A DNA stretch of 64,000 bases from Escherichia phage PE37 (NC_054929.1), one strand, 5' to 3'; counted from the first letter of the stretch, positions 6,668 to 7,447 are shown. The notes: generated by a model from the sequence alone, not told the origin. Made by a program: numbers and translations.

Positions 6668-7447
6668 TTATACTCTTGAACCGTATACAGCTCCAACGTT
6701 TTGCCATGTTGGAGCTGATCCTGCTACAGCAGCACCAGGATTTGTCGGAGGTGTTGAATAACCATTACCTGGATTAGCATATTGACCTGGTTGACCAACT
6801 TCACCGCCGCCACCTGCATAATACCCTGTACCAGTATTACCGCCAGCACCCGGAGACGTCAAACTAGCATTACCACCAGGCCATCGAGCACCATTATTTC
6901 CGCCTAAGCCGAATGGACGACCGCCGCCGCCGCCACAAACATATTTTCCCGCCCAGTTGTTGGCTTGTGAATAACCACCACCACCGCCGCCGCCGCCGGC
7001 AATAGCTCCGCCATTATTAATTCGCAGACGTCCACCTATATCATTCTGGATACATACACCGCCATCAGATGCTCCAATTGCACCAGCAGCCCAACCATTC
7101 CCACCACGACCATACATCGTTACGCCGTGTATGTTCAGTTGAACGTATTCATTAGGCGTATCTCCGTACATGAAGAATAAAGGAACATCTCTAGAATATG
7201 ATACTAAATCTCCAGTGATATTAAACACTATAGGTGCACTACCTGCCTCAAAACATCTATCTCGGAACCATTGACCATTGAAGTTATGGTCTGCTCCAAG
7301 TGTGTGAATTACTTCAACAGATCGACCTATCATATTACTCATCCAAAACGGAATTCCCATTCTCAATCTCTGCGCGGCACCACCCATCCAATTTTGTCCT
7401 GTATTAACTACTGCAGACGATCCTACCCACGGTCCTGTTACTGCCAT
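6668..7447 (-). CDS. 38: long tail fibre tip adhesin gp38, T2/T6 type with glycine-rich motifs
   Basis: 259 aa from ATG 7447 (track TTG at 7459); conserved N-terminal gp37-attachment region, then poly-Gly motifs (GGGGGGGG, GGGGG) separated by variable segments. Confidence 0.85.
6977..6997 (-). repeat. (GGN)7 trinucleotide run encoding poly-glycine in gp38
   Basis: plus strand reads ACC ACC ACC GCC GCC GCC GCC; second run at 6921-6934. Confidence 0.6.

Follow-up and report, generated by a model that had tools for sequence, protein, structure and literature searches.

A closely related system with a solved structure is gp38 of phage PP01. Its receptor-binding domain has been described as a beta-helix plus a polyglycine-II sandwich with five receptor loops, A to E, and a crystal structure, cross-linking and mutagenesis established that the protein binds OmpC-O157 by loop-E and loop-D (PMC12892980). 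In that complex loop-E enters between loops 5 and 7 of O157 OmpC, with loop-D and loop-B supporting (PMC12892980). Infection via OmpC-O157 is abolished by A228D or by deletion of residue 228 and tolerates A228V or A228L, and the authors argue for a hydrophobic contact at this residue (PMC12892980). The presence of the adhesin at the virion fibre tip and its binding to a receptor are experimental results for PP01, T2 and S16 (PMC12892980). Further, PP01 gp38 works on the gp37 of T2 only once its N-terminal 113 amino acids are replaced (PMC12892980).

For the wider family, the predominant adhesin of T4-type phages was found to be the T2/T6-type gp38 and not the T4 version (Trojet 2011, PMC3157838). 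Its glycine-rich motifs are regarded both as a conserved core and as recombination sites at which loops are shuffled (PMC3157838; PMC12032242). Recent engineering exchanged the distal half of g38 alone, and in the gp38 of RB51/RB68 one loop-tip change, Q206L, replaces OmpF by OmpW as the receptor (bioRxiv 10.64898/2026.04.02.716166).

The gp38 adhesin of PE37 and its gp37 partner

The stretch analysed here, called the window below, comprises 64,000 nucleotides of Escherichia phage PE37 (NC_054929.1). Gene 38 was called as an open reading frame at 6668–7447 on the minus strand, with an ATG start codon at 7447–7445 and the stop codon at 6668–6670, i.e., 259 codons plus stop. The translated protein matches Pfam GP38 (PF05268; aa 45–259, E = 4.3e-72, 242.9 bits at a cut-off of 25) and Gp38_N (PF21721; aa 1–40, E = 1.3e-21, 76.7 bits at a cut-off of 25), and gene 38 is therefore real, well above chance. 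The protein is already known: it was deposited and annotated as “receptor recognition protein” (ANH49621.1/YP_010073122.1; 259 of 259 amino acids identical), and for its class a crystal structure has been solved and the interface with the receptor mapped. Likewise, two further proteins of the window, gp37 (1103 aa, ANH49622.1) and gp35 (371 aa), are each identical to a PE37 protein. The gene order on the minus strand is t-38-37-36-35. Gene 38 lies directly downstream of gene 37 (7479–10790, minus strand; ORF call and Pfam), which encodes the distal long-tail-fibre subunit carrying gp38, and upstream of the holin gene t (5981–6637, minus strand; Phage_holin_T, E = 5.9e-117).

In T4, a gene of the same name at the same place between g37 and t encodes an assembly chaperone that is not found in the virion, and name and place would fit such a chaperone in PE37, too. 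Nevertheless, a T4-type chaperone identity was rejected, as BLASTP gave E = 17 and no meaningful alignment. A full-length alignment to T4 gp38, named beforehand in the sequence-only reading as contrary evidence to its own proposal, is thus absent. The chaperone reading is also opposed by the strong matches to Pfam adhesin families and by the 99% identity to a crystallised receptor-binding domain, namely 221 of 223 residues between aa 37–259 and the sfGFP-fused PP01 domain (PDB 9V85), and is almost certainly wrong. In contrast to T4 gp38, T2 gp38 aligns over its full length (48% identity), and the neighbouring gp37 carries an S74 domain. A match to S16 gp38 (PDB 6F45_D, E = 2.5e-52) covers the whole protein. 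The initial description of a 259-aa gp38 with poly-glycine motifs was confirmed by ORF, Pfam matches and motif positions, and its reading as an adhesin of the T2/T6 type and not a chaperone is supported. Judged by homology, the protein is a T2/T6-type gp38 adhesin of a Tequatrovirus and most probably belongs to the PP01/AR1 class.

The N-terminal gp37-attachment domain comprises aa 1–40 (7328–7447, minus strand), as delimited by Gp38_N. It is followed by the receptor-binding domain (aa 41–259; 6671–7327, minus strand), which has the span of the PP01 crystal construct gp38C 41–259 (PDB 9V85, PMC12892980) and, like it, is expected to contain a beta-helix, a polyglycine-II sandwich and the loops A–E. 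Translation, together with the DNA of relatives, places an octa-glycine motif (GGGGGGGG) at aa 151–158 (6974–6997, minus strand), encoded as (GGC)4(GGT)4 on the coding strand. Further glycine motifs are GGGGG (aa 172–176; 6920–6934, minus strand), GGNNG (aa 182–186) and GGGG (aa 212–215). Across 116 aligned homologue clusters, glycine motifs are 90–100% conserved and the intervening segments about 30–50%; GGGGGRPFG is almost invariant among the gp38 homologues.

Loop limits were transferred from PMC12892980. Accordingly, loop-A (aa 119–124, WAAGAI) is encoded at 7076–7093, loop-B (aa 161–170) at 6938–6967, loop-C (aa 184–189, NNGARW) at 6881–6898 and loop-D (aa 204–209, NTGTGY) at 6821–6838, all on the minus strand and all identical to PP01. 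Loop-E (aa 225–231; 6755–6775, minus strand) reads NPGNGYS, with codon 228 being AAT (6764–6766), and NPGAGYS in PP01. At the level of sequence, gp38 of PE37 agrees with a polyglycine-II sandwich with protruding loops. The glycine-rich motifs would form the structural core, from which loops A–E would project toward the receptor; residues 1–40 would attach to gp37, and the monomeric adhesin would cap the tip of the trimeric gp37 at the distal long tail fibre. Homology to the PP01, T2 and S16 proteins thus predicts a fibre-tip adhesin.

The gp37 partner shares its first ~60 amino acids with both T4 and T2, followed by ~35% identity over the first ~640–680 amino acids, and from about codon 56 onward blastn aligns its DNA with neither T4 nor T2. 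Compared with every relative, gp37 is a patchy mosaic (68–100%). Its C-terminus aligns with gp37 of S16 and T2, not with the T4 tip: aa 914–1103 match the S16 gp37 tip (6F45_A, E = 3.1e-43), including the SDxRxKK motif. Based on the S16/T2 alignment and on Pfam Peptidase_S74 (aa 993–1052), which starts at the motif SDIRVKK, an intramolecular-chaperone domain was assigned to aa about 993–1103 (7482–7814, minus strand). This domain is presumably auto-cleaved, as known from its family. If gp37 behaves like its counterparts in T2 and S16, it would lose its last ~110 residues after trimerisation, and gp38 would then cap the tip.

Genes 37 and 38 are separated by a short intercistronic element (7453–7473, minus strand) which contains a hairpin, GGGGC-UUCG-GCCCC (7460–7473), and a Shine-Dalgarno sequence, GGAGG (7453–7457). 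The hairpin folds with −17.3 kcal/mol (z = −2.2) and is identical in seven of seven relatives compared. Read on the plus strand, the hairpin precedes a T-rich run and has a terminator-like score (flanks 7448–7481), so that it might also end early transcription in the antisense direction. In the G4507 record it is annotated as a putative terminator. Around gene 38, promoter-like sites are not enriched (4 found, 4.8 expected from shuffled sequence). The three terminator-like sites found there (1.3 expected) represent this hairpin counted twice and a stem within the glycine run.

Relationship to T4 and the question of a tip exchange

The sequence-only reading held that the rest of the window is near-identical to T4, including the T4-associated segG, and that the tail-fibre tip module had been exchanged into a T4-like backbone. 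Of this, the presence of segG was verified (18779–19411, plus strand). Near-identity was not: most blocks aligned with T4 are 91–96% identical and a few 69–84%, the introns and mobE of T4 are missing, and additional DNA is present. In detail, blastn aligned T4 with positions 1–6662 at 96.2% and with 10624–20809 at 93.0%, with no match to T4 at 6663–10623. Neither td nor nrdB of the window contains the intron that it has in T4, and the endonuclease genes within these introns, for I-TevI (td) and I-TevIII (nrdB), are absent with them (window 23821/23822 and 27677–27680). The mobE/nrdB.1 segment of T4 is missing between nrdA and nrdB (26948–27004). DNA without a T4 counterpart was found at about 21546–22278, 22865–23270, 31236–31550 and 41762–45091.

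A recent exchange of a T2/T6-type fibre-tip module into an otherwise T4 genome is suggested by the unmatched interval 6663–10623 between flanks of 93–96% identity. It is also suggested by segG, a gene that T4 is known to have and T2 lacks, and by the mobility of tail-fibre modules, of which the Mosigvirus phage SF with a PP01-type g38 is an example. However, the flanks are ~95–100% identical per 250-nt interval to T4, T2, PP01, EC121, AR1, HY01 and others alike. The top 25 matches for window positions 1–25000 (G157lw, NBEco003, RB51, RB68 and similar phages; ~94–97%) do not include T4, and the missing td and nrdB introns, I-TevI, I-TevIII and mobE likewise speak against a T4 genome. Further, 140 phage records share segG at ≥95% identity (≥99% in 116 cases), among them phages with adhesin-type gp38 such as G157lw, UFV-AREG1 and SYGD1. 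This distribution fits a mobile homing-endonuclease gene, and segG is consequently not a marker of T4 lineage.

The adhesin type itself is the majority form: tblastn detected it in 890 phage records, as opposed to 297 records with the T4-type gp38 (~207 of these at ≥60% identity), in line with PMC3157838. Finally, T2 DNA does not align across g37-g38 in blastn either, and gp37 is mosaic compared with every relative (68–100%). Taken together, a recent tip exchange into T4 is very unlikely. T4 is the exception, and the window with its adhesin-type gene is ordinary.

As sources of the module, T2 and T6 were considered and rejected, with gp38 identities of 48% (T2) and 59% (T6). Since T2 DNA does not align across g37-g38, the module is of the AR1/PP01 type, not of the T2 or T6 type. 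The 3′ coding part of the receptor-binding domain was found in 51 phage records, mostly of E. coli phages (prominently O157 phages) and Shigella phages.

Several observations were made alongside on records carrying these genes. The 116 phage records in which segG is ≥99% identical comprise phages of E. coli, Shigella, Yersinia, Salmonella and Hafnia; segG is tighter than the surrounding genes, which is consistent with recent horizontal spread. Its product (210 aa) has no Pfam match at E ≤ 0.01. Escherichia phage SF (MH359124.1, Mosigvirus) carries an intact PP01-type g38 at 4501–5280 with 94% nucleotide identity to the window, and the adhesin module has therefore crossed genus boundaries. In the SF record this g38 is unannotated, and a short antisense ORF over its 3′ end is called ‘tail fiber protein’ instead. 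Moreover, gp38 adhesins of strictly lytic T-even phages are found in records labelled as bacterial, i.e., an E. coli entry (longest contig 5.24 Mb) and a cluster named after Bacillus cereus, which suggests phage contamination or mis-assembly in genome submissions.

Apart from the fibre genes, the window contains tandem full-length genes for Alt-like ADP-ribosyltransferases at 40953–43049 and 43053–45110 (plus strand; 698 and 685 aa, Pfam ADPrib_exo_Tox). T4 has one alt and the degenerate remnants alt.-1, alt.-2 and alt.-3 at this locus, and the second copy of the window (43053–45110) matches T4 weakly in DNA (about 69–80%). Small ORFs without T4 counterpart are located on the plus strand at 21489–21848, 21902–22282, 22880–23227 and 31230–31550 (106 aa); among these small ORFs, one product matches DUF7247 and two are without Pfam match.

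Glycine run, loop substitutions and recombination

The sequence-only reading took a glycine codon run of seven GGN units at 6977–6997 for a potential site of slippage by which the host range would vary. Such a run exists, but its count and limits had to be revised to eight codons at 6974–6997. Slipped-strand mispairing in this run, with length changes leading to host-range variants, might be expected from its two perfect 4-unit repeats, (GGC)4(GGT)4; the longest perfect trinucleotide repeat reported by TRF consists of five CCG units (6984–6998). In addition, the number of consecutive glycines varies from 4 to 9 among distant homologues. Against this, the run has eight codons in 11 of 11 close relatives at the DNA level, which differ in synonymous third positions only. 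Of 116 homologue clusters, 114 keep the frame of the motif, and the remaining two are without the whole segment. Where the glycine counts of distant homologues vary, residues at the edges of the run are substituted or the hypervariable segment next to it has changed. Furthermore, the repeats are short for slippage, the octa-glycine motif lies within the polyglycine-II structural core (PMC12892980), and deletions of glycine motifs in T6 gp38 yielded no viable phage (PMC3157838). Slippage as a source of host-range variants thus deserves hardly any credence, and the proposed role of the run was not upheld: its length is fixed in the close relatives, and variation takes the form of loop substitution and recombination. 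In distant homologues, slippage is a remote possibility at the boundary between motif and hypervariable segment.

Substitution is apparent at residue 228, the tip of loop-E. This residue is Ala in PP01, EC121, KNP5, AR1 and SF, Ser in Sfk20, pSs-1 and HY01, Asn in the window (PE37), G157lw, G4507, Sf23 and KMB42, and His in two proteins labelled E. coli. Residues 208 and 236 are likewise variable in the clade. One route to host-range variation within the clade would therefore be the point substitution of loop tips, e.g., A/S/N/H at residue 228.

Recombination is indicated by the distribution of informative sites in gene 38. Sites at gene nt 156–636 side with the PP01/EC121 group, with two exceptions, and all sites at nt 657–765 side with the G157lw/G4507/Sf23 group, in which loop-D reads NTGQYW. 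The breakpoint interval is nt 637–656 (codons 213–219; 6792–6811, minus strand), placing it at the glycine-rich motif between loop-D and loop-E; a stricter set of informative sites widens it to nt 637–682. The maximum chi-square of the breakpoint test was 29.8 (permutation p about 1e-4). PE37 g38 is thus a candidate recombinant which would combine a PP01/EC121-like loop-D with a G157lw/Sf23-like loop-E, and either lineage could be the recombinant one. Among the phage records examined, this pairing of loop-D and loop-E is otherwise absent. A second route of variation would accordingly be homologous recombination inside the conserved DNA of glycine motifs, by which loops would be reshuffled.

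These mosaic patterns of gene 38 match the published model of recombination at motifs as well as the engineering by exchange of the distal g38 half. Other members of the cluster join the PP01-type receptor-binding domain to a T2-like N-terminus, so the N-terminal attachment domain, as read from these fusions, is swapped independently. [quoted passage not shown] Two gp38 homologues, both cluster representatives, lack the whole stretch from the octa-glycine to the GGGGG motif, which looks like the loss expected from recombination between DNA repeats of glycine motifs.

Probable receptor and comparison with named gp38 systems

The receptor of PE37 gp38 is most probably the porin OmpC, as carried by O157-type strains of E. 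coli and by Shigella. We infer this by homology, and OmpC is the best choice because loops A–D are identical to PP01 and loop-E differs at one residue, A228N, at its functionally critical tip. Loop-E would insert between loops 5 and 7 of OmpC. The closest relatives of known receptor, PP01 and AR1, use OmpC, in the case of AR1 reportedly so (Yu et al. 2000). The N228 allele is also present in phages isolated on O157 (G157lw, on ATCC 43888) and on Shigella (Sf23). The Shigella phages Sf22 and KRT47, known to use OmpC, are not among the 51 records with a matching 3′ part of the receptor-binding domain. According to what is reported in reviews citing Son et al. 2018, PE37 lyses 37 of 37 O157:H7, 12 of 12 O26 and 16 of 25 ESBL E. 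coli strains, and no Salmonella.

The alternative is an adhesin which, due to A228N and the recombinant combination of loop-D and loop-E, uses a different receptor or a different set of OmpC alleles than PP01. Loop-E determines specificity, and residue 228 forms its tip, where A228D or a deletion abolishes infection of the PP01 type; the Asn of PE37 at this residue is polar, against the argument of the PP01 study for a hydrophobic contact. Since a single loop-tip change switches the porin in RB51/RB68, the specificity for OmpC or for its alleles could differ from PP01. The host range given in the reviews is also broader, including O26 and 16 of 25 ESBL E. coli besides O157. On the other hand, four loops are identical to PP01, N228 is shared with the O157 phage G157lw and the Shigella phage Sf23, and every O157:H7 strain tested is lysed according to the same reviews. 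OmpC use by PP01 and, reportedly, by AR1 points in the same direction. We therefore consider a different receptor or allele set unlikely and prefer OmpC. It is a possibility of similarly low probability that the recombinant loop-D with the Asn228 loop-E might widen or shift the OmpC alleles recognised and thereby add to the broad range reported for PE37. If this is true, position 228 accepts a polar residue although the PP01 model calls for a hydrophobic contact there. Provided that gp38 is the determinant, tolerance of Asn at 228 means a mild qualification of the hydrophobic-contact model.

As a whole, a gp38 adhesin of the PP01/AR1 class, with OmpC as the probable receptor and loop variation by substitution and recombination, is very likely the correct explanation of this locus. 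The practical value is modest: the gp38 sequence predicts OmpC, and the natural alleles of residue 228 and the natural motif recombinant could be used to test the PP01 gp38-OmpC model and to guide host-range engineering of phages against O157 and Shigella.

Compared with the named systems, PE37 gp38 has gene name and locus alone in common with T4 gp38, which has 183 aa and is not an adhesin, as T4 gp37 carries its own receptor-binding tip. T2 gp38 (48% identity over the full length) shares the architecture and is likewise encoded between g37 and t; however, its hypervariable loops and its N-terminal attachment subtype are different, and T2 gp37 has 1341 aa, as opposed to 1103 aa in the window. 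T6 gp38 is 59% identical to gp38 of the window. In S16 gp38 (6F45 chain D, bound to the gp37 tip), glycine motifs and domain order are as in PE37, but the hypervariable loops have another sequence and another length, and the protein binds OmpC of Salmonella. PP01 gp38 is of equal length and identical at 249 of 259 positions, including loops A–D and all glycine-rich motifs. Eight of the ten differences fall within aa 4–19 of the attachment domain, the other two being A228N and I254V. At the nucleotide level, PP01 g38 differs from the gene of the window at 37 positions, and the 3′ end of the latter sides with another lineage.
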